Shown in pieces: positions 5,335 to 52,618 of a stretch of 64,000 nt of DNA. The notes beneath the pieces were generated by a model, which saw only the letters and a program-made list of their open reading frames with translations, was not told where the DNA came from and searched no databases. Source of the DNA: an uncultured Candidatus Saccharibacteria bacterium (lineage in GTDB: Bacteria; Patescibacteriota; Doudnabacteria; UBA920; 2-01-FULL-46-14); the NCBI GenBank assembly GCA_964396685.1, contig CAYNFS010000003.1, positions 110 through 64,109 of the forward strand, given 5' to 3'. The translations under genes and the position numbers were made by a program. Within the stretch, counting starts at the first letter, position 1. Each line of letters begins with the position of its first letter.

Positions 5335-5409
5335 GGGCGCATAGCTCAGCGGCAGAGCATCCGTCTTATACACGGCAGGTCCTAGGTTCGAATCCTAGTG
5401 CGCCCACCA
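5335..5409 (+). tRNA. tRNA, anticodon loop CTTATAC giving anticodon UAU (putative tRNA-Ile reading AUA), with encoded CCA
   Basis: Cloverleaf folded by hand. Acceptor GGGCGCA/TGCGCCC, D-stem GCTC/GAGC, anticodon stem TCCGT/ACGGC with one 27-43 mismatch, T-stem CTAGG/CCTAG, T-loop TTCGAAT, discriminator A, 3' CCA. Confidence 0.75.
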
Positions 5410-7819: not shown

Positions 7820-8302
7820 ATGATTATTTTAGGCATTGACCCCGGCACAGCAACAACCGGCTATGGAATTATCCAAATAAAAAAGGGTGCGTCACCCCGC
7901 CTTATTGAATATGGCTGTATCACCACCCCTAAAAGAAACAGACCGGAGAAGCGCCTTACCGAAATTTATAAGGATCTCAAAAAACTTATCAAAAAACACA
8001 AACCCGGTCTTCTGGCTGTTGAATCTTTATTTTTTTTCAAGAATCTGAAAACCGCGATTTCTGTGGCGCAAGCAAGAGGAGTGGTGCTTCTTTGCGCTTC
8101 TGAATCAAAAATTAAAATTGCAGAATTTGCTCCGCTTGAGGTCAAAATGTCGCTCACAAGCTACGGCCGAGCCGACAAGAAACAAGTGCAATATATGGTG
8201 AAAAAGCTTTTAGGGCTTAAAAACGCGCCCAAGCCCGACGACGCCGCCGACGCTTTGGCAGTGGCAATCTGCGCTTCCTCCCGCCTGTCATTCCAGGCTT
8301 GA
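7820..8302 (+). CDS. ruvC: Holliday junction resolvase RuvC
   Basis: MIILGIDPGTATTGYGII, with a C-terminal KPDDAADALAVAICA. Confidence 0.9.
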   Translation: MIILGIDPGTATTGYGIIQIKKGASPRLIEYGCITTPKRNRPEKRLTEIYKDLKKLIKKHKPGLLAVESLFFFKNLKTAISVAQARGVVLLCASESKIKIAEFAPLEVKMSLTSYGRADKKQVQYMVKKLLGLKNAPKPDDAADALAVAICASSRLSFQA

Positions 8303-8348
8303 TTCGTCTTACAAGTCTAGACCAGGAATCCAATTCTTAAAGAAAAGA

Positions 8349-9649: not shown

Positions 9650-10447
9650 ATGAAAATTGACCAAATCACATCTGTTTTTACCAAATTGGGTCTGTCCAGC
9701 TTGGAAATAGACTGTTTTGTAGAATTGCTTAAAAAAAGCCCTCAAAAGGCTTCTGAACTCGCTAAAAAGTTTGCTCTGCCGAAAGCCACAGTACTTTCGG
9801 CTCTCTATCACCTGTCAGACGAGAAAGGATTAATTAAAAGAACTAAAATCAAGAACTCCTTTCATTTCCTTGTAGAAGATGCTGCAAGTGTTATAAATTT
9901 CATTACTCGAAAAGAGGAAATTCTGCTCGAAAACAAAAGAAATTTAGAACAACTCTTACCCGAACTTCGAGCCATGCAAAATCTGGATGCAATCAAGCCT
10001 AAAATTTTCTATTACGAGGGCAGGGGAGGACTAAAACAAGCCTTTGAACAAGTTTTGGAAGAAGCAGATGAAATAATTGGATATGGAAGTAATGAAGATG
10101 ATGTGAAATATTTGCCAGACTTATATCCGAGTTATTATGAAAGACGCGTCAAGAAAAAAATCCCAGTTAAAGCCATTATTCCCGGCACGGCATTTAATCT
10201 TCAAGAAACTTTAAAAAATGAAATTAAACACCTACGCGCAACTCATCTTATTCCAAAAGAATTTAACTATCCCATTCAAATAAATATCTATCGGCACACG
10301 GCCATTTTTTATTCCTTTGAGGAAAGTTTTGGGCTCGTAATAAAAAGCCGACCCATTGCCGACTGTTTGAAAAAAATCTTTGAATTGGCTTTTGAGAAAG
10401 CTGACGATACGGACAGAGAGATAAGAAAACTAATGAAACATGGATAA
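9650..10447 (+). CDS. TrmB-family transcriptional regulator
   Basis: N-terminal wHTH (LSSLEIDCFVELLKKSPQKASELAKKFALPKATVLSALYHLSDEKGLI) plus a C-terminal TrmB-type domain. AT-rich gene. Confidence 0.6.
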   Translation: MKIDQITSVFTKLGLSSLEIDCFVELLKKSPQKASELAKKFALPKATVLSALYHLSDEKGLIKRTKIKNSFHFLVEDAASVINFITRKEEILLENKRNLEQLLPELRAMQNLDAIKPKIFYYEGRGGLKQAFEQVLEEADEIIGYGSNEDDVKYLPDLYPSYYERRVKKKIPVKAIIPGTAFNLQETLKNEIKHLRATHLIPKEFNYPIQINIYRHTAIFYSFEESFGLVIKSRPIADCLKKIFELAFEKADDTDREIRKLMKHG

Positions 10448-14212: not shown

Positions 14213-14518
14213 TGGTTCGCATAAACCAAACTGTCTATTCGCTTTCCCATTTTTTCTTCCTCCATTCCGCCGGGAAGCGATTGCCTCCGGGCTTCAATCT
14301 ACCTACGCACCAAAGGATGGTGCCTCCGTTTCACGGAATTGTGAAAGAACAAAAAACTGACCTTTCAAGAGGCCAGGTGGAGAAGCTTGAGTGGGGAAAC
14401 TAATGACTAATAATCGACAACTGATAACCAAACTTAAGCGCCTGGAAACTGGCCTCTTGGGAGAAGCCGTAGTAATAGGCGCGGACTAGTTGAAATGTTT
14501 TGATTATCATACTTTTCT

Positions 14519-14544
14519 GGATTCCCGCCTTCGCGGGAATGACA
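14519..14544. repeat. hairpin repeat GGATTCCCGCCTTCGCGGGAATGACA (GGAATGAC palindromic repeat family)
   Basis: Inverted repeat TCATTCCCGCG/CGCGGGAATGA. Related copies at 17808, 19081, 31442, 48199 and 52579. A second hairpin CCGCCCCT...AGGGGCGG follows at 14561-14582. Confidence 0.7.
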
Positions 14545-17601: not shown

Positions 17602-18969
17602 TTGTACGAATATACGAATATTTTAATTCTCTTGGGGCTTGGTTTTTTTGCACTGACCGCAATCTTTCGTCGTGAGCGGGCTTTGTACCTGATCATCCTC
17701 CTGCTGCCAACTTATCAAATCCGCTTCAAAGTTGCGGGCATCCCAATGACTTTTCTGGAAGGGATGATTTTGATTCTCGCCATTGTGGAATTTAGCTCGC
17801 GGGTCTTGTCATTCCCGCGAAGGCGGGAATCTAGCGAGTGGATTCCCCGATCAAGTCGGGGAATGACATTGTTTTTTATTTTTCTTTTCCTACTTGCGGC
17901 ACTAATTTCTGTTTCTACCGGCCCCAATCTCGCAAAGGCGGCCGGCATTTTCAAAGCCTATTTTTTTGAGGCTGTCCTGTTCTGCTTTCTGGTCTTGCTA
18001 ATTATTGACACTCAAAAAAAGTTACGGCTCCTTTTCAAAGCCTTGACAATACTCGCGCTTTATCTCTCGATCTTTGGCATCTACCAGTTTATTACCCTTC
18101 ACGGCCTCCCTTACAACTGGTGGGCGGTGGATGTTGAAAGCAGGCGAATTGTTTCGGTTCTAAACCACCCAAACGCTTTGGCTTTACTTTTAGGGCCTCT
18201 TCTGGCTATGTTAATCTTTCTGCCGTATAAGAAAAAACTTGAATGGCTCACCATAACCCTAGCCGTTGTCACCCTCTACCTCTCTTTCTCCCGCGCCTCT
18301 TGGCTGGCATTAATAACTACCATTATCGTATTTACCCTTGTCTCCTGGCTCCGACGTTACGTCGCGAGCTGGCGAGGAGAGAGACTGAAAGAGAGGTCAA
18401 GGCTTGGCTTAAAACTTACCGCTGTGACATTGGGGATAATTTTTATTATCATCATTATTCCATTTTCCAGAACCAAAATTTTAGACCTCGCGCGCGGCCA
18501 GGATCCCTCACAGCAAAACCGGTACGTGCTATGGTCTGCGGCGGCCGATATGCTAAAAAAAAACCCTTTTTTGGGGGTGGGGCTGATGGGCTTTCACGAA
18601 GCCTACAAAAATTACCCCCTTGGCCCTGATCAGGTCGTGCAAAACTACCCACATAATTTCTTTTTGAATTTCTGGGTAGAGACTGGTTTGCTAGGACTGA
18701 TTTCAATAATCGGGCTTTTGATATTATTCTTCAAAAAAGTAACAAAACTCCTCTCCACAGCCACCTCTGGATTTTCTCCCCCTGCCCGAGGGGGAGACGA
18801 AGAGGGGGTGGGAGAGAGGTCACAAATGGCTCCTTTCGCTCTCGCTGCAGCCGCCGGCATGAGCATGATCATTCTTCACGGCCTTGTTGACGTCTCCTAT
18901 TTCAAAAACGATCTGTCGGTTTTGTTTTGGCTAATTTATTCACTTCCTTTCCTGTCATTGCGAGCGTAA
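17602..18969 (+). CDS. O-antigen ligase/polymerase-like polytopic membrane protein carrying in-frame repeat insertions
   Basis: At least 10 hydrophobic helices and a Wzy_C-like loop region. The translation contains SFPRRRESSEWIPRSSRGMT (from the hairpin repeat) and FSPPARGGDEEGVGERS (from the CTCCCCC...GGGGGAG palindrome). Confidence 0.5.
   Translation: MYEYTNILILLGLGFFALTAIFRRERALYLIILLLPTYQIRFKVAGIPMTFLEGMILILAIVEFSSRVLSFPRRRESSEWIPRSSRGMTLFFIFLFLLAALISVSTGPNLAKAAGIFKAYFFEAVLFCFLVLLIIDTQKKLRLLFKALTILALYLSIFGIYQFITLHGLPYNWWAVDVESRRIVSVLNHPNALALLLGPLLAMLIFLPYKKKLEWLTITLAVVTLYLSFSRASWLALITTIIVFTLVSWLRRYVASWRGERLKERSRLGLKLTAVTLGIIFIIIIIPFSRTKILDLARGQDPSQQNRYVLWSAAADMLKKNPFLGVGLMGFHEAYKNYPLGPDQVVQNYPHNFFLNFWVETGLLGLISIIGLLILFFKKVTKLLSTATSGFSPPARGGDEEGVGERSQMAPFALAAAAGMSMIILHGLVDVSYFKNDLSVLFWLIYSLPFLSLRA
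17808..17868. repeat. two tandem hairpin repeats (GTCATTCCCGCGAAGGCGGGAATC + GGATTCCCCGATCAAGTCGGGGAATGACA) inside a CDS, frame preserved
   Basis: Same family as 14519-14544. Translated as SFPRRRES...IPRSSRGMT within the ORF 17602-18969. Confidence 0.7.
18774..18798. repeat. palindromic element TCTCCCCCTGCCCGAGGGGGAGA inside a CDS
   Basis: CTCCCCC/GGGGGAG inverted repeat, in frame. A sister element sits in tal at 49150-49172. Confidence 0.6.
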
Positions 18970-18975
18970 ACGAAG
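18953..18975. repeat. TGTCATTGCGAGCG repeat at the gene end (a second copy at 30006-30037)
   Basis: The same GTCATTGCGAG...CGAAGCAATC-type motif occurs upstream of hisG at 30006-30037. Confidence 0.5.
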
Positions 18976-19033
18976 TAATTTATTTCGGGAGTCCCAAGCA
19001 TTTTTATTGCTTCGGGGGTACTAACCGAACTAG

Positions 19034-19063: not shown

Positions 19064-19120
19064 TCAAAAATTATTAACTAGATTCCGTATCAGGTAAGTA
19101 CGGAATGACAACAATGATAA

Positions 19121-29999: not shown

Positions 30000-30073
30000 A
30001 TATTATGTCATTGCGAGGAGTCCGCGACGAAGCAATCTCATCACCCCCTCATTTTATCACCGATTTTAAGCAT

Positions 30074-30131: not shown

Positions 30132-30788
30132 ATGCTTAATCTGGCTTTGCCTGACGGCAATCTCGAGAGGAATACTTTGCGGCTTTTGGAGGCCGCGGGT
30201 TTTAGGGTGGAGTTTATGGGGCGAAAATACACGGGCCGGATTCAAGATCCCTGCTTTGCCCACGTGGCGCTGATGCGGCCGCAGATTATGCCGGGACTCA
30301 TAGGAGGAGGAAACTATGATATTGGGATCTGCGGTTCGGACTGGGTTGAAGAAAGCATTACAAAGGCGCGGGTGATTGCGCGGTTCAACTATAATAGCAG
30401 GCAGTTCGGGAACGGGTGGCGGATAGTTTTAGTGGCTGGCGGAACTGATGTGGTCTCGAAGGGTGGGGAAATACCCGACGAGGCTGAGATTTTGAGCGAA
30501 TATCGGTGGATAACCGAGGATTACTTCAACAAAATCCACAAATTCGTGGATGTTAAAGAATCTTTGGGTAAAACCGAAGCGCACATTCCGCATGATTTCC
30601 GGTTTGGAGTCTGTGTTTCTGTAACTGGCGAGACACTCCGGGCCAATAATCTCAAGATCGTGGAAGTTTTGCGAAATGCCAACCCCTTATTGATTGCCTC
30701 GCCTCAAGCGATGCAAGACAAAAAGAAGAACGCCATGCTTGAAAGCGTCGCCGTGGCTCTCACTGAAGCACTCGCTTCTTTGCGCTGA
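30132..30788 (+). CDS. hisG: ATP phosphoribosyltransferase, short form
   Basis: MLNLALPDGNLERNTLRLLEAAGF and YDIGICGSDWVEE match the HisG N-terminal and substrate-binding motifs. 218 aa, which fits the short form. The track ORF at 29631 extends spuriously into ruvB. Confidence 0.7.
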   Translation: MLNLALPDGNLERNTLRLLEAAGFRVEFMGRKYTGRIQDPCFAHVALMRPQIMPGLIGGGNYDIGICGSDWVEESITKARVIARFNYNSRQFGNGWRIVLVAGGTDVVSKGGEIPDEAEILSEYRWITEDYFNKIHKFVDVKESLGKTEAHIPHDFRFGVCVSVTGETLRANNLKIVEVLRNANPLLIASPQAMQDKKKNAMLESVAVALTEALASLR

Positions 30789-30806
30789 CAGACCGCAAAT
30801 AGTCTG
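30781..30806. repeat. 26-nt hairpin motif GCGCTGACAGACCGCAAATAGTCTGT, copy 1, overlapping the hisG stop
   Basis: ACAGAC/GTCTGT inverted repeat. Identical or near-identical copies at 31274-31298 and 33027-33052, and a degenerate copy at 33487-33507. Confidence 0.75.
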
Positions 30807-30813
30807 TTTGTTT

Positions 30814-31002
30814 TTATTTCGGTTCTTCAATGCCCAAATCCCGACAAATTTTTCTGGCAAGAAAATCATTAATTTCTTTGTGCCGGGGGACCGTCGAAGT
30901 GCGTTTTAGTACGGGATTGAAAAAGACAGAATGCCTTGCGCCCTCTCTAATAAAAACACACCCTCTTTTCCGAAGGTGGCGGATTAGGCCGCTGTGTTTC
31001 AT
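30814..31002 (-). CDS. hicA: HicA-family toxin (YcfA-like mRNA interferase)
   Basis: 62 aa, MKHSGLIRHLRKRGCVFIREGARHSVFFNP...VPRHKEI fits the HicA fold pattern (KxxEliklL...G...GSH). Confidence 0.7.
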   Translation of the reverse strand: MKHSGLIRHLRKRGCVFIREGARHSVFFNPVLKRTSTVPRHKEINDFLARKICRDLGIEEPK

Positions 31003-31232
31003 TAAAGAGACACTGTTAGGGCCTTACGTTTTACTTTTCTGCCGTTAGTTTCGATTCTTCCAAGAAGTTTATTTGTTTCAAGTATAAGACGCAGGGCGTC
31101 TTGAAGATTCTCTTTGGTTTCAATCAGCGTTTTGCCTTGAGTATTAACGCCCGGAATTTCTTCGATCCACCCAAGATACCAACGGCCATGTTTTTGATAG
31201 ACTGCCGTGAACTGTCTTTTATTCTTTGCCAT
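31002..31232 (-). CDS. hicB: HicB-family antitoxin
   Basis: 76 aa. YLGWIEEIPGVNTQGKTLIETKENLQDALRLILE matches the HicB/UPF0150 N-domain pattern. Start and stop overlap with hicA. Confidence 0.65.
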   Translation of the reverse strand: MAKNKRQFTAVYQKHGRWYLGWIEEIPGVNTQGKTLIETKENLQDALRLILETNKLLGRIETNGRKVKRKALTVSL

Positions 31233-31273
31233 AACCTAAGTTTATTTAAAAAAGCTGTAAAAGTCAAGAATTA

Positions 31274-31345
31274 GCGCTGACAGGCCGCAGATAGTCTGCC
31301 CACCCGCCAGGATTCTTCCCAGATTCCGGCGGGCTTTTTTTATTT
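31274..31345. repeat. 26-nt motif copy 2 plus downstream terminator-like module CCCGCC...TTCCGGCGGGCTTTTTTTA
   Basis: GCGCTGACAGGCCGCAGATAGTCTG, then a CCCGCC/GGCGGG stem and a T7 run. The same TTCCGGCGGGCTTTTTTTA module follows the degenerate copy at 33531-33550. Confidence 0.65.
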
Positions 31346-31374: not shown

Positions 31375-31441
31375 GATATTTACACAATCAAATTAGATTC
31401 TTTCGCAAATTAATATGAGCCTATCTCAAAATTAGTTTTCT

Positions 31442-31511
31442 GTCATTCCGGGCTTGATCCGGAATCCAGATTTTGGCTTATTTACTGGATTCCCGCTTTC
31501 GCGGGAATGAC
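31442..31511. repeat. two hairpin repeats (GTCATTCCGGGCTTGATCCGGAATC ... CTGGATTCCCGCTTTCGCGGGAATGAC)
   Basis: Same GGAATGAC palindromic family as 14519 and 17808. Confidence 0.7.
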
Positions 31512-31581
31512 GGAAAGCGGGGAAAAATCAATTTTGAGATGAGTTCATATTGCTGTGGCATCTGGCAAAATCTGTCAGTGA

Positions 31582-32453: not shown

Positions 32454-33047
32454 ATGCCTGGATTCATAGTAAAGGCGATTATTTTGCTGGCACTGCCTTA
32501 TCTATTGGACGCCCAAGACCTGCAGAACCGCTCGACTCTGCATTTAATAGCGGACATTACCGACCGGTGGTACGTGGCCCTCTGGCCGATTGCCAACATT
32601 AGAGCGCAGTCACCCAGCAACTTCAACATTTTTGCTGGCGCAGGACGCCGCGGTAAGAATTGGTATCTGGAAGCCATGGCCCAGAAGCAGTGGAACGGCA
32701 AAGGCGGGTTGTGGACGCTAGACTTCCGCTATCGCAGGCAAGTTACCGGTCGCCTTTCGGTTTATGCCGAACCAGACGTTTTCCTTAGCCGGCGCGCGTT
32801 TTACGAGTTTATAATAGTGGAGTATCGCTCATGGCGGAAATTTAACTTGGGCGGTGAAACTGAAAACGTTCACCAGCTCGGTAAAGACGTTCTGGCGGCA
32901 GGGCCGCGGATCAGCCGCCCGCTTGGCAGGCTCTGGGGAACCGACTTTGCGCTCGGATTGGCCTATAGGACAGCTTCACCGGGGCACAATGAAATCAGGA
33001 TTTACCTGAACGCCACCAAGCGTTTTGCGCTGACAGACCGCAAATAG
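32454..33047 (+). CDS. secreted hypothetical protein (signal peptide)
   Basis: MPGFIVKAIILLALPYLLDAQDL signal-peptide-like N-terminus, Trp/Arg-rich, GC-rich. Start set at the ATG after RBS AAAGGAGG (the track used TTG at 32448). Ends inside copy 3 of the 26-nt motif. Confidence 0.4.
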   Translation: MPGFIVKAIILLALPYLLDAQDLQNRSTLHLIADITDRWYVALWPIANIRAQSPSNFNIFAGAGRRGKNWYLEAMAQKQWNGKGGLWTLDFRYRRQVTGRLSVYAEPDVFLSRRAFYEFIIVEYRSWRKFNLGGETENVHQLGKDVLAAGPRISRPLGRLWGTDFALGLAYRTASPGHNEIRIYLNATKRFALTDRK

Positions 33048-33052
33048 TCTGT
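33027..33052. repeat. 26-nt hairpin motif copy 3 (GCGCTGACAGACCGCAAATAGTCTGT)
   Basis: Identical to copy 1. The stop codon of the 32454-33047 gene lies inside it, in a different frame from the hisG case. Confidence 0.75.
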
Positions 33053-33079: not shown

Positions 33080-33484
33080 ATGAGTAAGGCAGAAATTATC
33101 GCAAAAGCCCTGAAGAAGAATGGGGTGCTTGCGGATTTCGATCCGGAGAATAGGGACGATATGCTTGGTTATTTCCTGGTCATTCGTCAGCCCGGCAAAC
33201 CAGTCTTTCTGGTGGTTGATGAGTCTGGATTACAAAGCCATGCTTCAGTGGTCGCGGCTCTTCGTCGACTGGAAGTTTTACCTCACATGCCCGGGCAAAG
33301 TTTGCCCGAGTCAATAATCCGGTGTATTCGTGGAGGCACATACTCTTATAACTGGATTAAGACATGGCCCATGGAGGGGAATTGGACCATCGGGATGTCT
33401 AGCGGCGACTATGGGGTGGTTTGGGAAGACCTCCGGGCTCGGATAATCGACATTGTGAGCGGTGGGAAGCAGTGGCAGAAATGA
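33080..33484 (+). CDS. hypothetical protein
   Basis: 134 aa with RBS GGAGGAAGAAATG and no recognisable motif. Followed by the degenerate 26-nt motif and the terminator module at 33487-33550. Confidence 0.35.
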   Translation: MSKAEIIAKALKKNGVLADFDPENRDDMLGYFLVIRQPGKPVFLVVDESGLQSHASVVAALRRLEVLPHMPGQSLPESIIRCIRGGTYSYNWIKTWPMEGNWTIGMSSGDYGVVWEDLRARIIDIVSGGKQWQK

Positions 33485-33548
33485 ATCGCTAACAGACCAC
33501 AGAAAGCTTACTCGCCTGAATTCTTTGAAGGGTTCCGGCGGGCTTTTT

Positions 33549-33683
33549 TTATCCGCCTCCGCTCCTGCGACCACGGGCTTGATCGGTGGATGAAGGGCGG
33601 TACGGATAAAGCACGTGAGGGCAAAACATCGTCTGGCTTCGGCGGATGCAGCAGCGAGATTCTAGGCGGATAAATAAGGGCGG
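33549..33683 (+). repeat. conserved structured element of about 135 nt, copy A (TTATCCGCCTCC ... GGCGGATAAA)
   Basis: About 75% identical to 51935-52066. The 5' TTATCCGCC can pair with the 3' GGCGGATAA. Shared internal blocks GTGGATGAAGG, TAAAGCACGT and GCTTCGGCGGATG(C/T)AGCA, with compensatory changes in the hairpin regions. Confidence 0.6.
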
Positions 33684-33728
33684 TTTTCCATGGGATTTAA
33701 GCCGAGTTGGGATTGCTCGCAATGACAG

Positions 33729-35246
33729 CTAGCGGCGATGTTTGAAGTTTTTCAAAAATTCAAGCGCCAAGCGTACGCCGACACCGGTTGCACCTTTCGG
33801 CCGATAAGGTTTTTCGCGCGTGGTCCAGGCGACCCCGGCGATGTCGAGATGAATCCAGGGATAGCTTACAAAGTTTTGCAGGAAAAGCGCGGCGTTAACG
33901 GCGTCTCCCTGCCGAGGAACTGCGCCGACATTTCTTAAATCCGCAAAATCGCTTTTGATAAATTGTTCGTATTCTTTGTAAAGCGGCATTAGCCAGATTT
34001 GCTCGCCGGTTATTTGTGCGGCATTTTTTAATTGCGGCACCAACCTTTCTTGATTGGTAAATGCGCCGATTAGATCGTCTCCCAGTGCTACCACGATTGC
34101 CCCGGTGAGTGTGGCAAAATCAATAACGAGGACGGGCTTGTATTTTTTGGCGTAATCTAAAGCATCGGCCAAAACCATTCTTCCTTCGGCATCAGTATTT
34201 ACGACTTCAATGGTTAGACCTGCACGGGAACGGACGATATCTCCCGGTTTGATCGCTTTGCCCGAGGGAAGATTTTCTGTGGCAGGGATAAGCCCCACCA
34301 AGTTTATGGGGAGTCGCAGCTCGCAGGCGGCTTTGATTGTGGCAAGGACTGTGGCTCCTCCCGCCATGTCATATTTCATTTCCTCCATTTTCTCCGAAGG
34401 CTTGATAGAAATGCCGCCGCTGTCAAAAGTGATTCCTTTGCCCGCCAGGACAACTGTCGGGGCTTTTTTCTCCGCGTGATATTCCAAAACAATAAATTTT
34501 GGCTCCTCATCCGAGCCTTGAGCTACAGCCAGCACGGCGCCCATGCTTTCTTTTTGTAAATCCCCCTTCCCCAAAACTTTGGCTTTGAGAATTTTCGAGT
34601 GCTGTTTGGCCAGATCTAAAGCGTGTTTGGCTAAGTGCTGTGGTGTTGCAACATTTCCCGGGTGGTTTCCTAAATCCCTGGCGTAGTTTGCGGCTTGAGA
34701 CAAAGTATGCGCGACGGTTGCCGCTTTGAGGACCTTGGTTTTGTCGCGGGAGTTGCTTAAAACAAACTGAATTTGTGTTAAGGCCGCGGGTTTTTCTTCT
34801 TCGCCCCGCTTCTTATATTCTGTAAATTTGTAATTCGCGAGCAGTATTCCTTCTGTGAGAGCTTGAGTGGCTGATTCGACCGAGACTTTGCTGGGCAAGG
34901 TTTTTATCAAGGCGATCGCAATATCATTGACTTTGAACTTTTGAGCAACCGGAGCCGCAGCGCTCATGGCCGTTCTTGCTTTCTCCAAGTTATATTCGGA
35001 TTGTTTGCCCAGCCCCAAAAGCAAAACGCGCTTAGCCGCAGTCCTTTTGCCGGTAAACATCGCTTGGGTTTCCGCGAGCTTGGGCTTGAAGTCACCGCGG
35101 CTGATTAAATCGGAAATTTCTTCTCCCAGGGCACGGTTGAGTTCTTTGGCTTTTGGCTCAAGTTCCTTGGCATCTTCAAAAAGAGGGACGATTAGAAGAT
35201 CGGTTTGGATTTGTGATAAAGGCCTGGTGGTGGTTTGAAAATTCAT
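33729..35246 (-). CDS. pepA: leucyl aminopeptidase (M17 family)
   Basis: NTDAEGRMVLADAL and VVNTDAEGR-type M17 active-site motifs. Confidence 0.9.
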   Translation of the reverse strand: MNFQTTTRPLSQIQTDLLIVPLFEDAKELEPKAKELNRALGEEISDLISRGDFKPKLAETQAMFTGKRTAAKRVLLLGLGKQSEYNLEKARTAMSAAAPVAQKFKVNDIAIALIKTLPSKVSVESATQALTEGILLANYKFTEYKKRGEEEKPAALTQIQFVLSNSRDKTKVLKAATVAHTLSQAANYARDLGNHPGNVATPQHLAKHALDLAKQHSKILKAKVLGKGDLQKESMGAVLAVAQGSDEEPKFIVLEYHAEKKAPTVVLAGKGITFDSGGISIKPSEKMEEMKYDMAGGATVLATIKAACELRLPINLVGLIPATENLPSGKAIKPGDIVRSRAGLTIEVVNTDAEGRMVLADALDYAKKYKPVLVIDFATLTGAIVVALGDDLIGAFTNQERLVPQLKNAAQITGEQIWLMPLYKEYEQFIKSDFADLRNVGAVPRQGDAVNAALFLQNFVSYPWIHLDIAGVAWTTREKPYRPKGATGVGVRLALEFLKNFKHRR

Positions 35247-42197: not shown

Positions 42198-44156
42198 ATG
42201 ATTGGGACAGAAAAGCTGCAAAAGTTAGCAAAGCTTATCCGCTATTTTATTTTAACTTCAACCACTGAAGCAGGTTCGGGGCACCCGACTTCGTCGCTGT
42301 CTGCGGTTGAATTGATGGCGGCCCTGCTTTTTGGCGGGTTTTTTCGTTTTGATTTGGACAATCCAGCGCACCCAAACAATGATCGGTTGATTTTCAGCAA
42401 AGGCCACGCTTCGCCGCTTTTTTATTCTTTATGGGCCGCTGCCGGCAGGGTTTCCGAGCAAGAGCTTTTGACCTTTCGGAAATTTGGGAGCCCTTTGGAA
42501 GGGCATCCCACGCCAGCTTTTGTATACACAGAGGCCGCCACTGGCTCACTTGGCCAAGGCTTATCAATTGGCGCAGGAATGGCGCTCAACGCCAAGCTTG
42601 ATAATTTGGCTTATAGAACTTTTGTATTGTTAGGAGATAGTGAAATGGCCGAGGGTTCTGTGTGGGAGGCCGTGCAAATCGCGGCGCATTATAAACTTAA
42701 TAATTTAATCGGGATTTTGGATGTGAATCGTTTGGGGCAAAGGGGCGAGACTATGTATGGACACGACATAAAGGCCTATGAGAAAAGGATTAAGTCTTTC
42801 GGATGGGAGACGATCGTAATAGAGGACGGGCATAATTTTCGCCAAATTTTAGAGGCCTTTCAATTTCTAATTTCTAATGACGAATTTTTAAACAAATCCC
42901 AAGTCCCAAATTCCAAACCAGTTATGGTTATAGCGAAAACAATCAAGGGCAAGGGCGTATCGTTTCTTGAGAATAAAGACGGGTGGCATGGGAAAGCGTT
43001 GCCCGCCGAAGATCTACCAAAGGCGTTAGCAGAGCTGGGAGAGATTGATAAAGGCACTCGCGGGGAAGTGGGCAAACCTGAATCGGCGGGAATTTCTAAA
43101 TCCAAATTTCTAATTTCTAAACAAGCACCAAAATACCAAATACCAAATACTAAATACGATCCCGGTAAACCCGTGGCGACGAGGAGGGCTTATGGGAATG
43201 CATTGGTCAATATCGCCGAGGTTTTCCCAAATCTTGTGGTGCTGGACGGCGAGGTTTCCAATTCGACCTATGCCGAGATTTTCAAAAAAGCTTATCCCGA
43301 GCGGTTTTTTGAGATGTTTATCGCCGAGCAGAATATGGTCGGCGTGGCGCTTGGGCTTTCGCGCCGTGGGAAAATTCCTTTTGTTTCAAGCTTCGCCGCG
43401 TTTCTCACGCGGGCTTTTGATCAAATTAGGATGTCGCAATATAGTGAGGCCAACCTCCACCCTGTTAAATCCGCCGAAGGCGGGGCTGCTTTGCAGCCAT
43501 TTAACGGGGTAAAGTTCTGCGGATCTCATGCTGGCGTTTCAATCGGCGAGGACGGGGCAAGCCAAATGGGGCTTGAGGATATTGCGATGTTTCGGACTAT
43601 ATTAAGCAGTATTATTTTGTATCCTTCGGACGCTGTTTCTTGCGAGAGACTGGTGGAGGAGGCGGCAAAACACAAAGGAATGGTTTATATTAGAACAACG
43701 CGCAAAGACACCTCGATTATTTACGAACCCAGTGAAGAATTTAAGATCGGCGGCTCAAAAATACTTAGACAATCAACCCACGATCGTGGGACAGTTGTCG
43801 CGGCGGGAATTACTTTGCATGAGGCACTCGCGGCGTACGAAGAACTTAAAAAAGAAGGAATCAATATCCGGGTGGTTGATTTATATAGTGTGAAGCCCTT
43901 GGATGTTGAAACGTTGCGGAAAGCGGCGGAAGAGACAAAGGCAATTATCACCGTTGAGGATCATTATTCAGAGGGTGGCATTGGCGAGGCAGTGGATACC
44001 GTTTTGGCACAAATACTAAATACTAAATACAAAATACTAAACTTGGCTGTTCGCAAAATGCCACGCTCCGGAAAGCCCGAGGAACTTTTGAGATATGAGG
44101 AAATAGACAGAAGTGCTATTATTAAGGCAGTAAAAGATTTAATCAGTAATAAGTGA
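42198..44156 (+). CDS. tkt: transketolase carrying in-frame low-complexity insertions
   Basis: TPP-binding GSLGQGLSIGAGMALNAKL and LLGDSEMAEGSVWEA. Insertions at FQFLISNDEFLNKSQVPNSKP, GISKSKFLISKQAPKYQIPNTKY and ILNTKYKILN are encoded by tandem DNA repeats. Confidence 0.9.
   Translation: MIGTEKLQKLAKLIRYFILTSTTEAGSGHPTSSLSAVELMAALLFGGFFRFDLDNPAHPNNDRLIFSKGHASPLFYSLWAAAGRVSEQELLTFRKFGSPLEGHPTPAFVYTEAATGSLGQGLSIGAGMALNAKLDNLAYRTFVLLGDSEMAEGSVWEAVQIAAHYKLNNLIGILDVNRLGQRGETMYGHDIKAYEKRIKSFGWETIVIEDGHNFRQILEAFQFLISNDEFLNKSQVPNSKPVMVIAKTIKGKGVSFLENKDGWHGKALPAEDLPKALAELGEIDKGTRGEVGKPESAGISKSKFLISKQAPKYQIPNTKYDPGKPVATRRAYGNALVNIAEVFPNLVVLDGEVSNSTYAEIFKKAYPERFFEMFIAEQNMVGVALGLSRRGKIPFVSSFAAFLTRAFDQIRMSQYSEANLHPVKSAEGGAALQPFNGVKFCGSHAGVSIGEDGASQMGLEDIAMFRTILSSIILYPSDAVSCERLVEEAAKHKGMVYIRTTRKDTSIIYEPSEEFKIGGSKILRQSTHDRGTVVAAGITLHEALAAYEELKKEGINIRVVDLYSVKPLDVETLRKAAEETKAIITVEDHYSEGGIGEAVDTVLAQILNTKYKILNLAVRKMPRSGKPEELLRYEEIDRSAIIKAVKDLISNK
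42861..42925. repeat. tandem AATTTCT and CAAATCCCAA-type repeats inside tkt
   Basis: TTTCAATTTCTAATTTCTAATGACGAATTTTTAAACAAATCCCAAGTCCCAAATTCCAAACC. Confidence 0.6.
43091..43157. repeat. tandem repeats (AATTTCTA x3, then CAAATAC/TAAATAC heptamer x4) inside tkt, frame preserved
   Basis: AATTTCTAAATCCAAATTTCTAATTTCTAAACAAGCACCAAAATACCAAATACCAAATACTAAATACGAT. Confidence 0.7.
44011..44045. repeat. heptamer tandem repeat (C/T)AAATAC x5 inside tkt
   Basis: CAAATACTAAATACTAAATACAAAATACTAAAC. The same unit occurs at 43125-43151. Confidence 0.7.
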
Positions 44157-48198: not shown

Positions 48199-48244
48199 CT
48201 GGATTCCGTATCCCTCCCAAGGCGGGCAGGCAAGTACGGAATGA
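48199..48244. repeat. hairpin repeat CTGGATTCCGTA...TACGGAATGA
   Basis: GGAATGAC palindromic family; directly abuts the tal 5' duplicate. Confidence 0.6.
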
Positions 48245-48257
48245 TAGACTATCTGAT

Positions 48258-48362
48258 GAGGCCGACAAACTTGAAAACCAGAATTTTTTTGGATTCCGGC
48301 GATCCTGACGAGACCCGGGAGGCTTTGGGCTTGCTTGGATTTCTTGACGGGCAGACGACCAA
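48258..48362 (+). pseudogene. duplicated 5' fragment of the transaldolase gene (about 85% identical to 48870-48975)
   Basis: ATGAGGCCGACAAACTTGAAAACCAGAATTTTTTTGGATTCCGGCGATCCTGACGAGACCCGGGAGGCTTTGGGCTTGCTTGGATTTCTTGACGGGCAGACGACCAATC aligns with the genuine tal start. The reading frame hits a stop shortly after the duplicated part. Confidence 0.6.
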
Positions 48363-48417
48363 TCTTCTATTTTCGTTATGCTTTGCTTCAAATCTAAAAT
48401 TTTGCTAACATGTAAAT

Positions 48418-48663
48418 ATGCTAACTGAATTTGTTATTAAAAAATTAAAAATCGCCAAGTACAAGCTTCTTAAGGACAAAACTTATTTTGGTGAAATTCC
48501 TGGTCTACAAGGAGTGTGGGCAAACGCACGAAATTTGGAAGACTGCAGAAAACAGCTCCGGGAAGTGCTGGAGGAGTGGGTACTGCTTCGGATTCGGGAT
48601 CGTCAAAGCGTGCCCGGATTGTATATTCATGCCAATCGCCGCCAAATAGTGAAGCATGCCTAA
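48418..48663 (+). CDS. hicB: HicB-like antitoxin
   Basis: 81 aa, TYFGEIPGLQGVWANARNLEDCRKQLREVLEEWV fits the HicB N-domain. Overlaps hicA by 8 nt. Confidence 0.55.
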   Translation: MLTEFVIKKLKIAKYKLLKDKTYFGEIPGLQGVWANARNLEDCRKQLREVLEEWVLLRIRDRQSVPGLYIHANRRQIVKHA

Positions 48664-48868
48664 AAGTATTTCTTGGAGAAAGTTAGTGCAAAAGTTTAGG
48701 CGTTTGGGTTTTGACGGACCGTATTCTGGCGGCCGTCATTTGTTTATGATTAAGGGAACCTTAAAGCTTCACATCCCGAATCCGCATCGCGGCAATATTT
48801 CTAAACACCTCCTTGCAGAGATTTTGAGACAAGCCGGTATTCCTTCTGCGGACTGGGAACAAGCGTAA
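48656..48868 (+). CDS. hicA: HicA-family toxin
   Basis: 70 aa, WRKLVQKFRRLGFDGPYSGGRHLFMIKG...IPNPHRGNISKHLLAEILRQAGI is the HicA/YcfA pattern. Confidence 0.7.
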   Translation: MPKSISWRKLVQKFRRLGFDGPYSGGRHLFMIKGTLKLHIPNPHRGNISKHLLAEILRQAGIPSADWEQA

Positions 48869-48869
48869 T

Positions 48870-49799
48870 ATGAGACCAGCAAATCTCAAAACCAGAATTT
48901 TTCTTGATTCAGGCGATCCTGACGAGACCCGGGAGGCTTTGGGCTTGCTTGGATTTTTTGACGGGCAGACGACCAATCCGAGCTTGATTGCCAAAAATCC
49001 GGAAACGGCCGGGAAGAAATTTACTCGCGAGGAGATTTTGGATTTTTACAAAAAAGTCGTGCAAGAGATTTCGGGTTTGATTCCCGAAGGCTCGGTTTCG
49101 ATAGAGGTTTATGCGGATTTCTCGACACCCGGCCTTCCTACCCCCTCTTCATCTCCCCCATCGCATGGGGGAGAAAAAAGATTGTCCATGCTCGAACAGG
49201 CGAGGGGGATGTTTCATTGGATTCCGAATGGTCATATCAAATTTCCAACCACGACAGAAGGGCTTAAGGCGGCAGAGCAAGCGGTCAAGGAAGGCATGGG
49301 AGTCAACATGACTCTGTGTTTTTCGCAGGAACAGGCGGCCGCGGTTTATGCTGCAACCAGAGGGGCCCAGAGAGGGCAAGTTTTTGTCTCGCCATTTGTG
49401 GGGAGGCTGGATGACCGAGGCGAGCGGGGGATGGATTTGATCGCGAATATTATTAAGATGTATAAACAGGGAGACGGACATGTGGAGGTGCTCACGGCGA
49501 GTGTGAGGAACATTGAGCATGTTTTGGAAGCGCTGCGATTAGGGTCGGATATTATTACGATGCCATTGGGGGTGCTCGAAAACTCCAAATCACAAATAAC
49601 AAATCCCAAACAAATCCCAAATTTTCCGCCCAAGGCGGATCCACCCCTGGCGGACAAATTCCAAATTCAAAACTTGAAGCCAATAGATTATAAAGAGCTT
49701 GATTTAGATAAATCCTGGCAGGAGTATGATATCGGGCATGAGCTGACGGACATCGGAATGGAGAAGTTTTCCGAGGATTGGAACCGATTAATAAAGTGA
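48870..49799 (+). CDS. tal: transaldolase / fructose-6-phosphate aldolase family, with in-frame insertions
   Basis: IFLDSGDPDETREALGLLGFFDGQTTNPSLIAKN and FVSPFVGRLDD (Schiff-base Lys region). At 309 aa it is about 90 aa longer than typical short-form Tal/FSA. Insert sequences PTPSSSPPSHGGEKRLS and SKSQITNPKQIPNFPPKADPP. Confidence 0.85.
   Translation: MRPANLKTRIFLDSGDPDETREALGLLGFFDGQTTNPSLIAKNPETAGKKFTREEILDFYKKVVQEISGLIPEGSVSIEVYADFSTPGLPTPSSSPPSHGGEKRLSMLEQARGMFHWIPNGHIKFPTTTEGLKAAEQAVKEGMGVNMTLCFSQEQAAAVYAATRGAQRGQVFVSPFVGRLDDRGERGMDLIANIIKMYKQGDGHVEVLTASVRNIEHVLEALRLGSDIITMPLGVLENSKSQITNPKQIPNFPPKADPPLADKFQIQNLKPIDYKELDLDKSWQEYDIGHELTDIGMEKFSEDWNRLIK
49150..49172. repeat. palindromic element TCTCCCCCATCGCATGGGGGAGA inside tal
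   Basis: CTCCCCC/GGGGGAG inverted repeat, in frame. Sister of 18774-18798. Confidence 0.6.
49581..49668. repeat. CAAAT-rich tandem repeats and a CCGCC...GGCGG hairpin inside tal
   Basis: CACAAATAACAAATCCCAAACAAATCCCAAATTTTCCGCCCAAGGCGGATCC...CCAAATTCCAAATTCAAAAC. Same CAAATCCCAA unit as in tkt at 42892. Confidence 0.6.
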
Positions 49800-49831: not shown

Positions 49832-50188
49832 ATGCTAATAAAAACGTTTCGTGATTTGATTGCCTGGCAGAAAGCTCATAATCTTACTCTAGGAGTCTAT
49901 AAAATAACTGATAAATTTCCCAAAACCGAGACATTTGGTTTAACTAGTCAGATGCGTCGTTGCGCTGTTTCTGTGCCTTCTAATATCGCAGAGGGGTTTA
50001 AGCGAAGAACAAAAAATGATTCGGTTCATTTCTACAACATTGCCGAGGGAGCATTAGAAGAATTAAAGTATCAATTGCTGCTTGCGAGAGACCTAGGCTA
50101 TATTTCAGATAAAGAATATCGCTCGTTGAATGATTTAGCCGATGAAGTAGGCAAACTCACCAACGGTTGGAAGCGGGTACAAAAATAA
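49832..50188 (+). CDS. avd: four-helix-bundle protein of the 23S-rRNA-intervening-sequence / Avd family (DGR accessory variability determinant-like)
   Basis: 118 aa, WQKAHNLTLGVYKITDKFPKTETFGLTSQMRRCAVSVPSNIAEGFKRRT...FYNIAEGALEEL, the TIGR02436/PF05635 pattern to which DGR Avd proteins belong. Confidence 0.7.
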   Translation: MLIKTFRDLIAWQKAHNLTLGVYKITDKFPKTETFGLTSQMRRCAVSVPSNIAEGFKRRTKNDSVHFYNIAEGALEELKYQLLLARDLGYISDKEYRSLNDLADEVGKLTNGWKRVQK

Positions 50189-51388: not shown

Positions 51389-51870
51389 GCCTTTGATCCC
51401 TTGGGAAGTTGGTTCTTTTGGATCCTTTGTTTTTTGGGATTCTTTAAGACCAATTCCCCCGGGGTTATTTTTTATGATATAATTTTGGGCAGAGAGTAGG
51501 TTAAAGCGGATTGGTTCAAGGATCAATCCCGCCGAAATCGGTGTGAGTTTGATTTACCAGAATTTTTGTGATCACGGTTACAAAAAGCGCGTAAAAAACT
51601 TAAAGGCACTACTTGTCTGTTTCTAATGCCTGACTAAATTGGGGCAGGGAGCGGTATCAGCCGCCGAGCTGTTGGCCGATTTCCTGAAGGTGCGTTTGGA
51701 GAAGAAGATATTTTTTGTTATCCAGACACCTCAAATCTCTGGCAATTCTAACGAATATTTTCTGAGCGTCCAGTTTTATACTTGCTCGTTTGAAAACAAA
51801 ATCAAAAATAGCCGGTTTTTATGGCTGATTGAAGAAATTATTGAAAATTTTTCTGTGGATAAAATCGGAC

Positions 51871-51880
51871 AGCGGGGGGG
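51871..51880. repeat. G10 homopolymer at the frame switch inside the RT
   Basis: CAGCGGGGGGGGGGCTTT. The RT reading frame shifts exactly here. Confidence 0.8.
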
Positions 51881-51939
51881 GGGCTTTATATGGATTGCCA
51901 ATCGGCAATTTAACCTCGCAAATATTCGCAAACATTTAT

Positions 51940-52160
51940 CCGCCTCCGCCGAATACCACGGGGTTACCCGTGGATGAAGGCGGAAGGCGTAAAGCACGTA
52001 AGCTAAAGCATAAGTCAAGCTTCGGCGGATGTAGCAACGACAGCCCAGGCGGATAAACCCGCCTTAGCTTTAGGGAAGGCGGGTATGGAGGGTACCACGG
52101 CTTCCCGGCCGTCGTAGCCATAGGCCACTATGGCGGAGTCGGCTAGCCGTGGGGCTCCAT
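51940..52160 (+). mobile_element. 221-nt insertion splitting RT motif 4 from motif 5. Contains copy B of the conserved structured element (core 51935-52066)
   Basis: Removing 51940-52160 joins ...SQIFANIY to LNELDQFV..., the contiguous DGR-RT consensus. The insertion starts TTATCCGCCTCC and contains GGCGGATAAA, like copy A at 33549-33683. Confidence 0.6.
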
Positions 52161-52578
52161 TTGAATGAATTAGACCAGTTTGTAAAACACCAGCTTCGAG
52201 TAAAATATTACTTTCGCCATGCTGATGATTTTGTTATAGTTCATAGTGACGACACTCATTTGCAGGGCCCAACCTGCTCAATTCAGAGGTTTTTGAAAGA
52301 CGATCTTGATCTGGGGCTGCATCCTAAAAAAATCGTCATCAGAAGACTCCACCAAGGCATAGATTTTTTGGGTTATGTTATTTTACCTCATCATATCGTA
52401 TTGAGGACGAAAACCAAAAGAAGAACATTTAGAAAACTTTTTGAAAAAAGAGGAATGCTCGAAAGGGATAAGATAAGTTTTGAGAGTTATAATCAATCAA
52501 TACAGTCTTATTTGGGCATGTTGGAGCATTCAAATGGATATAATTTGAGTAATATAATTCAGAATAATTTTTCAGGAG

Positions 52579-52606
52579 CTGGATTCCCGCTTCCACGGGA
52601 ATGACA
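52579..52606. repeat. hairpin repeat CTGGATTCCCGCTTCCACGGGAATGACA at the RT 3' end
   Basis: GGAATGAC palindromic family. Supplies the terminal codons (GFPLPRE) and the stop of the RT ORF. Confidence 0.6.
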
Positions 52607-52618
52607 GGATTAATTATT

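Follow-up and report, generated by a model that had tools for sequence, protein, structure and literature searches.

The window analysed here is a stretch of 64,000 nucleotides (64 kb) from a metagenome-assembled genome of the Patescibacteria, and the repeat copies inside its genes are known from the DNA sequence. It contains a 455-aa open reading frame (ORF) of the O-antigen-ligase family (Pfam PF04932 Wzy_C, E 3e-25), in which palindromic repeats are found in frame (Table 1). The repeat features that an earlier note on this DNA had listed for the ligase gene, for a reverse transcriptase (RT) ORF and for the transaldolase gene (tal) are all present in the sequence. Two hairpins do occur in the ligase gene, but they are not tandem, as had been described, since they are inverted relative to each other and form a doublet. 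The gene ends inside a repeat, with TGTCATTGCGAGCGTAA at 18953-18969 encoding LSLRA and the stop codon; the hairpin family of the doublet also closes the RT ORF, where the unit holds the ATG of the next ORF as well; and a sister CTCCCCC/GGGGGAG palindrome lies in tal, with its core at 49153-49173.

Table 1. Repeat units and host genes in the 64-kb window (positions count from the first letter of the window).
Feature	Position	Strand	Remarks
Long-loop CC-type unit, overlapping the last 5 codons and stop of ruvC	8286..8332	+	RuvC end differs in L083
Solo CC-type SRM unit, intergenic	14517..14544	-	SRM match; 96% complementary to 17807-17834
Wzy_C ligase gene, repeat host, intact	17602..18969	+	PF04932; 540 homologues; conserved residues kept full-length
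CC-type SRM/NTS unit, left half of doublet, ligase loop 1	17807..17834	+	SRM match; perfect 8-bp stem
CC-type SRM unit, right half of doublet, inverted	17838..17868	-	Minus-strand SRM match; 9-bp stem
Loop encoding ASWRGERLKERSRLGL, decayed G-rich repeat?	18364..18411	+	Assorted repeat-like peptides or nothing in orthologues
G-rich palindrome element, CTCCCCC-N7-GGGGGAG plus GAAGAGGGGGT tail, in-frame ligase loop	18772..18825	+	
Decayed GC-type unit, C-terminal end of ligase (LSLRA and stop codon)	18953..18985	+	
Solo CC-type unit, intergenic, downstream of ligase	19082..19110	-	
GC-type unit TGTCATTGCGAGGAG...GAAGCAATC, solo and intergenic, upstream of the real start of hisG	30006..30040	+	No stable hairpin alone
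Intergenic CC-type doublet, right unit an exact NTS	31441..31512	.	Fold z -5.25
Remnant of GC-type unit, GGGATTGCTCGCAATGACAG, intergenic	33705..33728	-	
Third kind of element, composite palindrome of 54 nt, in frame within the transketolase gene (tkt), HPVKSAEGGAALQPFNGV	43458..43511	+	
G-rich element, clean 48-nt (16-codon) in-frame insertion in tal	49128..49175	-	
Solo CC-type unit, GFPLPRE-stop of RT-fragment ORF	52579..52606	-	

In the ligase doublet, the left unit reads TGTCATTCCCGCGAAGGCGGGAATCTAG and the right unit GTGGATTCCCCGATCAAGTCGGGGAATGACA, and together they are translated as SFPRRRESSEWIPRSSRGMT. No part of the doublet is degraded, both stems being perfect and the flanks kept, and it folds as DNA at -18.5 kcal/mol (z -4.4). 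Further downstream, CTCCCCCTGCCCGAGGGGGAG (18776-18796) lies within the ligase peptide FSPPARGGDEEGVGERS. GAGAGGTCA is found both in the loop at 18364-18411 and in the tail of the 18772-18825 element, and the loop is probably, with low certainty, a decayed G-rich repeat. The ligase inserts sit in hydrophilic loops between hydrophobic segments, with five of the six unit frames open, and about 80 invariant residues of the ligase are kept on both sides of every insert. The lengths of the inserts in genes are multiples of three, and VLSFPRRRESSEWIPR is an example of a peptide spanning an insert junction.

The doublet belongs to a group of hairpins with a common layout, i.e., GTC, a palindrome ATTCC...GGAAT and C, found either solo or in inverted pairs (doublets) with a short spacer. 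All eight of these CC-type units read GTC-ATTCC..GGAAT-C, with DNA fold z scores from -3.8 to -5.3, and the head (T/C)GTCATT is common to every unit of either type. The Neisseria Transformation Sequence / Ssn-related motif (NTS/SRM), a hairpin cut by GIY-YIG single-strand nucleases, has been published with the consensus CGTCATTCCCGCGMAVGCGGGAATCYRG and a degenerate SRM pattern; the GTC on the 5' side and the C on the 3' side of its palindrome are the positions critical for cutting and binding, and the family takes in the Neisseria dRS3 repeat, ATTCCC-N8-GGGAAT (PMC11893778). The SRM pattern was matched four times in the window, against 0.16 expected from Markov shuffles, and GTCATTCC occurred nine times in the 64 kb, against 2.0 expected, a count reached in 0 of 100 shuffles. 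One unit (31485-31512, minus strand) fits the NTS consensus exactly, while the left ligase unit and the intergenic unit at 14517-14544 differ from it at base 1 only. Besides its complementarity to the latter (Table 1), the left ligase unit is 93% complementary to 31485-31511, within a doublet that is itself nested in a larger palindrome (31412-31551) with 28-nt arms. Based on their sequences, we assign the GTCATT hairpins to the NTS/SRM repeat family. The expectation of a family analogous to the Rickettsia palindromic elements (RPEs) was borne out as to palindromes inside genes, but the GTCATT hairpins are not a new kind of repeat.

Within the window 12 GTCATT units were counted, mostly intergenic or at the 3' ends of genes, and the gene-internal copies of the GTCATT and G-rich families are limited to the ligase doublet and the two G-rich palindromes. 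Among 82 Patescibacteria ligase loci, the GTCATT hairpins are lineage-specific and not general. The TGTCATTGCGAG repeat has the same GTC-ATT…AAT-C frame as the CC type, and it reads GTC-ATTGC..GCAAT-C (GTCATTGCGAGG...GAAGCAATC); we class it as a sister subfamily, the GC type. Its units fail the published SRM pattern, having a G where a Y is required, and they fold as doublets only, a lone unit giving no stable hairpin. The unit at the C-terminal end of the ligase is of this type, and homologous copies in the syntenic loci L083 and L002 are further decayed; from these sequences we judge it to be an old and decaying copy.

The CTCCCCC…GGGGGAG palindrome is a separate family, unrelated to the GTCATT hairpins. 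It occurs twice in the window, against 0.02 expected, and the copies in ligase and tal, which are in opposite orientations, are 81% complementary over 42 nt (18772-18813); the tal element has a fold z score of -3.3. The palindrome is also present in several Patescibacteria contigs, in which no partner gene for the family was found. The peptide encoded by the tal element, PGLPTPSSSPPSHGGE, corresponds to a 16-aa gap in all of 23 orthologues, and solved transaldolases are likewise without it. The tkt element is present as a single copy in the window, folds as DNA at -20.6 kcal/mol (z -6.1) and aligns to an 18-aa gap in human transketolase (6rjb). Searches for other kinds of element gave little: the one Rfam match of the window at the gathering score was a tRNA, low-threshold scanning of two regions (33400-33800 and 51400-52700) returned nothing meaningful, and a reading of the 130-nt repeat (33548-33675 and 51936-52058) as a DGR template/variable pair was not supported, its differences not being confined to adenines.

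Comparison of the ligase with 37 orthologues identified the three insert sites as hypervariable loops, where a native loop is found in some proteins and unrelated peptides derived from repeats in others. Most orthologues are without the G-rich element at 18772-18825, and P0003 has the same element in another loop. Units were detected in the ligase orthologues of L011 and L020 also, and in the same ligase loop in independent assemblies from different samples. Elsewhere in the Patescibacteria they lie within genes for a glycosyltransferase and two aminoacyl-tRNA synthetases (L205 and L207). In neither the ligase nor the tal orthologues were the peptides conserved where the palindrome is missing, and the insert peptides of both proteins are, as judged from the alignments, lineage-specific. 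As the peptides are absent or variable in orthologues, and the same units occur between genes and in other genes, these results indicate repeat copies tolerated in frame, which agrees with the RPE-like behaviour proposed in the earlier note. By inspection, no direct repeat indicating a target-site duplication was seen at the tal insertion or at the ligase doublet, whose ends can be placed only to within a few bases.

In L205 (with a protein to which NCBI gives the name Candidatus Uhrbacteria) and in L207 (from the Patescibacteria assembly GCA_004321885.1), an ssn-like gene is bracketed by inverted GC-type units of about 45 nt, with gene-less doublets alongside. The bracketed gene is about 290 nt long and encodes a single-domain GIY-YIG nuclease; an ssn-like gene of L207 lies at 10001-10309. 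Of the loci holding the hairpin, 7 of 120 from metagenomes and 5 of 120 from the viral collection have ssn-like genes beside or between units, and the GIY-YIG domain was present in all ssn-like proteins tested. A second GIY-YIG type in Patescibacteria ligase loci (L020, L038, L049) was discarded as evidence, having no flanking GTCATT units. In the 64-kb window itself no ssn-like gene was found, either by a GIY-YIG pattern search or by tblastn with five GIY-YIG queries. The doublets look like gene-less miniature derivatives of the ssn cassette. The units described here share with the published NTS/SRM and SsnA system (Nat Commun 2025, PMC11893778) their sequence, the hairpin core with GTC on the 5' and C on the 3' side, their multicopy occurrence and, in other Patescibacteria and metagenome contigs, the ssn-like genes bracketed by inverted units. 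They differ in the host phylum, the Patescibacteria (candidate phyla radiation) being absent from that study, in the in-frame gene copies, which are likewise absent from it, in the GC-type subfamily that falls outside the SRM pattern and folds only as a doublet, and in a window without ssn.

The Ssn enzymes of Neisseria and Wolbachia bind to the hairpin when the DNA is single-stranded and nick it just 5' of the palindrome, and a resemblance to an insertion sequence has been pointed out (PMC11893778). The units may be mobilised by Ssn. We consider it probable that the repeats studied here are SRM-family copies that spread via hairpin nicking or recombination and are tolerated in frame within genes. 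Nicking or recombination at the hairpin would spread units around the genome, and a copy landing in a gene would survive if its length keeps the frame, if it brings no stop in frame and if the site is tolerant, i.e., a hydrophilic loop or the extreme C-terminus. The surviving copy would then be translated as a loop and decay by mutation. In the ligase, all of loop 1 is now encoded by the doublet, a later loop holds a palindrome of the second, G-rich family, and an old GC-type unit gives the C-terminus and the stop codon; the G-rich family has also put 16 codons into transaldolase. The way in which copies insert, and the translation and neutrality of those in genes, we infer.

Loop 1 of the ligase holds either a native loop of 10-23 aa or an SRM doublet, according to branch, and in several branches the doublet replaces the native loop and is not added to it, which simple insertion does not predict. 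This replacement between highly conserved flanking segments could instead reflect allele exchange, in which one or a few old insertions were spread among related lineages by homologous recombination via the conserved flanking helices, or in which the repeats served as recombination sites. Such exchange is compatible with the SRM identity and disputes only why loop 1 is so often occupied; we regard it as possible, although rather unlikely. Doublet-bearing and native-loop alleles do alternate between sister taxa, but the distance tree behind this alternation is crude. The Neisseria dRS3/NTS repeats have been linked to recombination and transformation (PMC11893778). On the other hand, loop 1 is occupied by two different subfamilies among the orthologues and has at least three left boundaries: that of the window lies one codon before that of P0003, P0002 and P0013, and about seven residues of the upstream helix are missing in P0019, P0020, P0008 and P0024. 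An end-to-end swap of the relatives' GC doublet for the CC doublet of the window was considered and rejected, as the element of the window begins a codon before theirs and two fewer residues follow it. The idea that uninserted loops are decayed elements was likewise dropped, since their conserved basic pattern is common down to the deepest branches.

Besides tolerance of SRM copies, selection might keep the hairpins in genes, either as an Ssn-cut mark on incoming single-stranded DNA or as a structure, in RNA or DNA, with an effect on expression. The intact state of the ligase doublet would fit this, as would the clustering of Neisseria NTS near surface-structure genes and the lower transformation of the DNA that they flank (PMC11893778), the ligase being a cell-envelope gene whose orthologues are repeatedly occupied. 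We nevertheless find selection improbable: the C-terminal unit of the ligase is decaying, sister taxa do well without the doublet, and copies are found in tal, tkt and aminoacyl-tRNA synthetase genes as well. The apparent rate of occupation of the ligase is also inflated, the loci having been picked around this gene.

REPs are by definition extragenic. With REP, BIME and REPIN elements the hairpins have in common that they are short and imperfect as palindromes, that they frequently form inverted pairs around a short spacer, and that one small enzyme gene is flanked by the repeats; the analogy has been drawn in the Ssn paper (PMC11893778). Movement by a RAYT (IS200/IS605-like Y1) transposase and not by Ssn is very improbable, however, given the fit to the NTS consensus and the head GTCATT in place of GTAG; the unit-flanked gene encodes a GIY-YIG protein and never an HUH Y1 transposase in every cassette seen, and none of the ORFs beside the window units has a transposase domain. 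The doublets also resemble bacterial MITEs (e.g., Correia, ERIC and Nezha) in looking like a miniature, without the gene, of a cassette bounded by terminal inverted repeats, and the GC-type units of L205 and L207, which both flank the ssn-like gene and form gene-less doublets, show the inverted repeats in common with the parent that are a MITE trait. Occasional in-frame fusions of MITEs with host ORFs are also known (PMC10969869). The units depart from typical MITEs in being much shorter, in the lack of a visible target-site duplication and in a parent cassette that encodes a nuclease and no recognised transposase. That the whole pattern arose from a mis-assembled metagenome bin, in which repeats can confuse assemblers, or from a pseudogene with a frame open by chance is hardly credible, in view of the same-loop units in independent assemblies, the invariant ligase residues around the inserts and the insert lengths.

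The closest behavioural parallel is given by the RPEs, which are palindromic repeats found both between genes and in frame in unrelated housekeeping genes, where they add an extra peptide in tolerant parts of the protein (PMC10969869). This trait, in-frame insertion without destruction of the gene, was seen here in ligase, tal and tkt, and in the glycosyltransferase and tRNA synthetases of L205 and L207. RPEs measure about 150 bp and fall into ten Rickettsia families with a conserved peptide each, and they are set apart by this description (PMC10969869) from the units studied here, which are 25-70 bp long, of other sequence and from another phylum; from size and host, membership in the RPE families is unlikely. 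Rickettsia is listed among the genomes with more than 300 SRMs (PMC11893778). A literature search on the repeat strings, the peptides and a link between RPEs and GIY-YIG proteins returned only the Ssn paper (PMC11893778). A bolder view is that in Patescibacteria new protein loops arise recurrently from Ssn-type cassettes and the G-rich family by cut-and-replace events, in which entire loops, surface or cytoplasmic, of enzymes of the envelope and of central metabolism are swapped at hairpin-defined boundaries, and that the RPEs belong to the same nuclease-linked system. We hold this to be speculative and unlikely, but, if true, it would provide a candidate enzyme for the unexplained mobility of RPEs.

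Overall, we conclude that these are SRM repeats behaving like the Rickettsia palindromic elements. The Ssn nucleases and their hairpin repeats were first described in 2025 (PMC11893778), and the present results place a consensus-identical NTS repeat in a groundwater bacterium of the candidate phyla radiation, together with a sister GC-type subfamily outside the published search pattern. For the annotation of metagenome-assembled genomes, such repeats yield many spurious "hypothetical proteins" and odd loops, recognisable by peptides such as SFPRRRES, VIPAKAGIQ, LRGNDK and SLRG...RNDK. Essential genes can harbour such repeats in frame, and the Ssn system is thereby linked to the old puzzle of the coding palindromes of Rickettsia.

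The gene in which the earlier note had placed palindromic elements encodes an intact O-antigen-ligase-family protein. Sequence inspection recovered all the features described there, i.e. the hairpins and the G-rich palindrome (CTCCCCC...GGGGGAG) in the ligase, the G-rich palindrome in the transaldolase gene tal, the LSLRA-stop repeat, and the hairpin closing the reverse-transcriptase ORF; the two ligase hairpins form an inverted pair, rather than being in tandem as proposed. The window has a G+C content of 47%, and protein comparison places its nearest relatives in Candidatus Doudnabacteria and other Patescibacteria.

Coordinates of repeat elements, host genes and neighbouring features in the window
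Feature	Position	Strand	Remarks
O-antigen-ligase-family protein	17602-18969	+	455 aa; Wzy_C match, E 3e-25
Inverted hairpin pair in ligase (CC-type doublet, short spacer)	17807-17868		translated SFPRRRESSEWIPRSSRGMT
Inverted CC-type doublet, short spacer	31441-31512		intergenic
Solo CC-type units	8286, 14517, 19082, 52579		
First-family hairpin ending reverse-transcriptase-fragment ORF	52579-52606		
Hairpin end GGAATGACA	52598-52606		TGA of this ORF and ATG of the next, phosphoglucose-isomerase-like ORF
GC-type copies	30006; 18953 (decayed); 33705 (remnant)		
Ligase 3'-end repeat TGTCATTGCGAGCGTAA	18953-18969		yields LSLRA-stop
Ligase G-rich palindrome CTCCCCC-N7-GGGGGAG	18776-18796		within FSPPARGGDEEGVGERS
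tal insert PGLPTPSSSPPSHGGE	49128-49175		48 nt
Transketolase (tkt) palindrome	43458-43511		54 nt
A-rich AAATACY-type segments in tkt and tal	42894, 43131, 44018, 49587		KYQIPNTKY-like peptides when translated
Larger palindrome enclosing the intergenic doublet	31412-31551		28-nt arms, 82% complementarity; composite ~140 nt
hicB/hicA toxin-antitoxin pair	48418-48868		within region 48241-48868
Direct repeat of tal pieces	48256-48364, 48870-48978		109 nt, 91% identity
hicA/hicB-like ORFs	30814-31002, 31002-31232	-	small, adjacent
Direct repeats TTTGCGCTGACAGACCGCAAATAGTCTG	30779-30806, 31271-31298, 33024-33051		28 nt
bAvd-like gene; two reverse-transcriptase ORFs	49832-50188; 51639-51977, 52149-52604		G10 run at 51874
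~130-nt repeat	33548-33675, 51936-52058		roughly 75-82% identity
tRNA-Ile, anticodon TAT	5335-5409		sole tRNA in window

The ligase hairpins belong to a set of GTCATT units with two subfamilies. CC-type units (n = 8 in the window) consist of (T/C)GTC, ATTCC, a loop of 4-24 nt, GGAAT and C, and GC-type units (GTC-ATTGC GAGGAG...GAA GCAAT-C) share this frame with a compensated stem. Strong folding was found for CC-type units and doublets, i.e. two inverted units (z -3.8 to -5.3), and none for a lone GC-type unit (z +0.5). With 9 copies of GTCATTCC in the window against 2.0 expected, and 93-96% complementarity between ligase and intergenic units, the repeat counts and complementarity of these palindromes are not due to chance. 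Selection evidently disfavours in-gene GTCATT copies, since ~92% of the window is coding, yet only the ligase doublet among the 12 units is gene-internal; three others overlap the last codons of ORFs, and the remainder are intergenic.

Literature searching with the dRS3 core brought up a 2025 paper on Ssn nucleases that defines the Neisseria Transformation Sequence (NTS, CGTCATTCCCGCGMAVGCGGGAATCYRG) and a degenerate Ssn-related motif (SRM) pattern (PMC11893778). Small GIY-YIG nucleases, whose genes these hairpin repeats typically flank, bind and nick the repeats in single-stranded DNA; the trinucleotide 5' of the palindrome controls cutting, and the C immediately 3' controls binding (PMC11893778). 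Positions 31485-31512(-) are an exact match to the NTS consensus, 17807-17834 and 14517-14544 each show one mismatch, at the first base, and the SRM pattern has 4 matches in the window versus 0.16 in shuffles. GC-type units, in contrast, fall outside the SRM pattern as published for Ssn systems, and the Ssn paper mentions neither Patescibacteria nor intragenic copies (PMC11893778).

The orthologue alignment that the earlier note had called for bears on whether the ligase peptides are insertions. Among 37 orthologues (55-69% identity), the three repeat sites, all hydrophilic and between hydrophobic segments, vary more than any other part of the protein, which otherwise is well conserved. Loop 1 is in many orthologues a native basic loop of ~10-23 aa, and reads SLRG...RNDK in P0002, 3, 4, 6, 8, 13, 15, 16, 19, 20 and 24; its coding sequence in loci L001, L002 and L003 is a GC-type doublet. 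In every case the element substitutes for the native loop and never adds to it. Doublet-bearing ligases are dispersed on the distance tree, each with a native-loop sister (P0005 vs P0006/13; P0011 vs P0003 and the window; P0014 vs P0015; P0017 vs P0020). The element boundaries vary among groups and the CC type occurs only in the window, which favours multiple events in a single permissive loop over one ancestral event. More distant orthologues also carry units, in loop 1 (L011) or a later loop (L020). The C-terminal GC unit is shared with the syntenic L083 and L002, where decay is more advanced, and thus is old and vertically inherited.

In-gene palindromes in this genome extend beyond the ligase repeats. 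The tal peptide is present in 0/23 orthologues and is also missing from solved transaldolases, and the perfect composite palindrome in tkt is in frame (fold z -6.1), with an 18-aa gap opposite it in human transketolase. Other Patescibacteria encode a glycosyltransferase with an internal solo GC unit (SMSLRGGVSPTKQSN), a tRNA synthetase with an internal CC unit (LSFPRLSTGESS), and a second tRNA synthetase whose C-terminus is formed by a GC unit (SVIASEAKQSQT-stop). In L083 (4864-5415), RuvC has a 25-aa G-rich insert (SPRRRKQRPLSPPLSSRRGGGRGRKGEGG) missing in the window RuvC. The G-rich palindrome (consensus CTCCCCC-N5-8-GGGGGAG-N3-RAGAGGGGGT; 2 window copies against 0.02 expected) is a family distinct from the GTCATT units, and all 6/6 of its reading frames are open. 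Six of the 13 distinct copies from the window and Patescibacteria loci are ORF-internal, three of them in ligase orthologues, where the loop in P0003 differs from the window's. Seven viral-collection contigs also contain it, and no recognisable nuclease or transposase gene adjoins any copy.

No GIY-YIG ORF was found within the window. Scanning public metagenome contigs for TGTCATTCCCGC-N4-GCGGGAATC gave at least 120 loci (those listed with 29-69% G+C), and 7 of the 120 listed include a single-domain GIY-YIG (ssn-like) gene no more than ~200 nt from a unit and usually enclosed between units. The NTS-like hairpin also occurs in >120 viral contigs (IMG/VR, L215-L334; G+C 32-71%), with an adjacent ssn-like gene in 5 of the 120 loci listed. 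All ssn-like proteins tested have the GIY-YIG domain. In metagenome locus L108 (38% G+C), 17 GC-type units surround the ssn-like gene, and a protein search with its nuclease retrieved proteins named by NCBI as Patescibacteria, Parcubacteria and Uhrbacteria. In the Patescibacteria contigs L205 and L207 (GCA_004321885.1), the gene lies between two inverted GC-type units of ~45 nt each; gene-less doublets of the same units adjoin it, and the doublets thus resemble miniature forms derived from an ssn cassette. A small patescibacterial GIY-YIG gene of another type, in L020 (16493-16800), has 15-nt inverted repeats (CACCCCGTTAGATAA / TTATCTAACGGGGTA) on its flanks and may represent another nuclease-repeat pair.

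Other features were also observed. The hicB/hicA pair has the full tal gene on one side and a truncated copy of its 5'-end on the other, and looks as if inserted with a long target duplication. Two further ORFs appear to resemble a hicA/hicB pair and are bracketed by direct repeats, a third copy of which lies 1.7 kb off. The bAvd-like gene and split reverse transcriptase look like a diversity-generating retroelement remnant; the C-terminal fragment shares 34% identity with the reverse transcriptase of L108, which is intact and adjoins a bAvd gene and the ssn-like gene. The ~130-nt repeat has ends able to pair (TTTATCCGCCT...AGGCGGATAAA), and one of its copies is located between the reverse-transcriptase fragments; an Rfam search gave no match for it, and its copy differences are not adenine-specific.

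The GTCATT units very probably do not belong to the REP/RAYT system: they have no GTAG head, and the enzyme genes that they flank in the cassettes observed are of the GIY-YIG type. Rickettsia palindromic elements (RPEs) are ~150 bp long and form ten families; for three of these, close to half of the elements are located in ORFs (PMC10969869). By that description, the window units are, in size, sequence and host, unlikely to be RPE family members; the in-gene palindromes nevertheless match RPEs in behaviour, as had been suggested. The best reading is that GTCATT units are SRM repeats dispersed by an Ssn-type cassette, with the mobilising step inferred; the Ssn paper goes no further than likening the repeat-gene-repeat layout to an insertion sequence (PMC11893778). 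Selection would retain in-gene copies only if in frame, stop-free and in tolerant loops, where they would be translated and then decay. The main value of these repeats is a link between coding palindromes and Ssn systems that can be put to the test.
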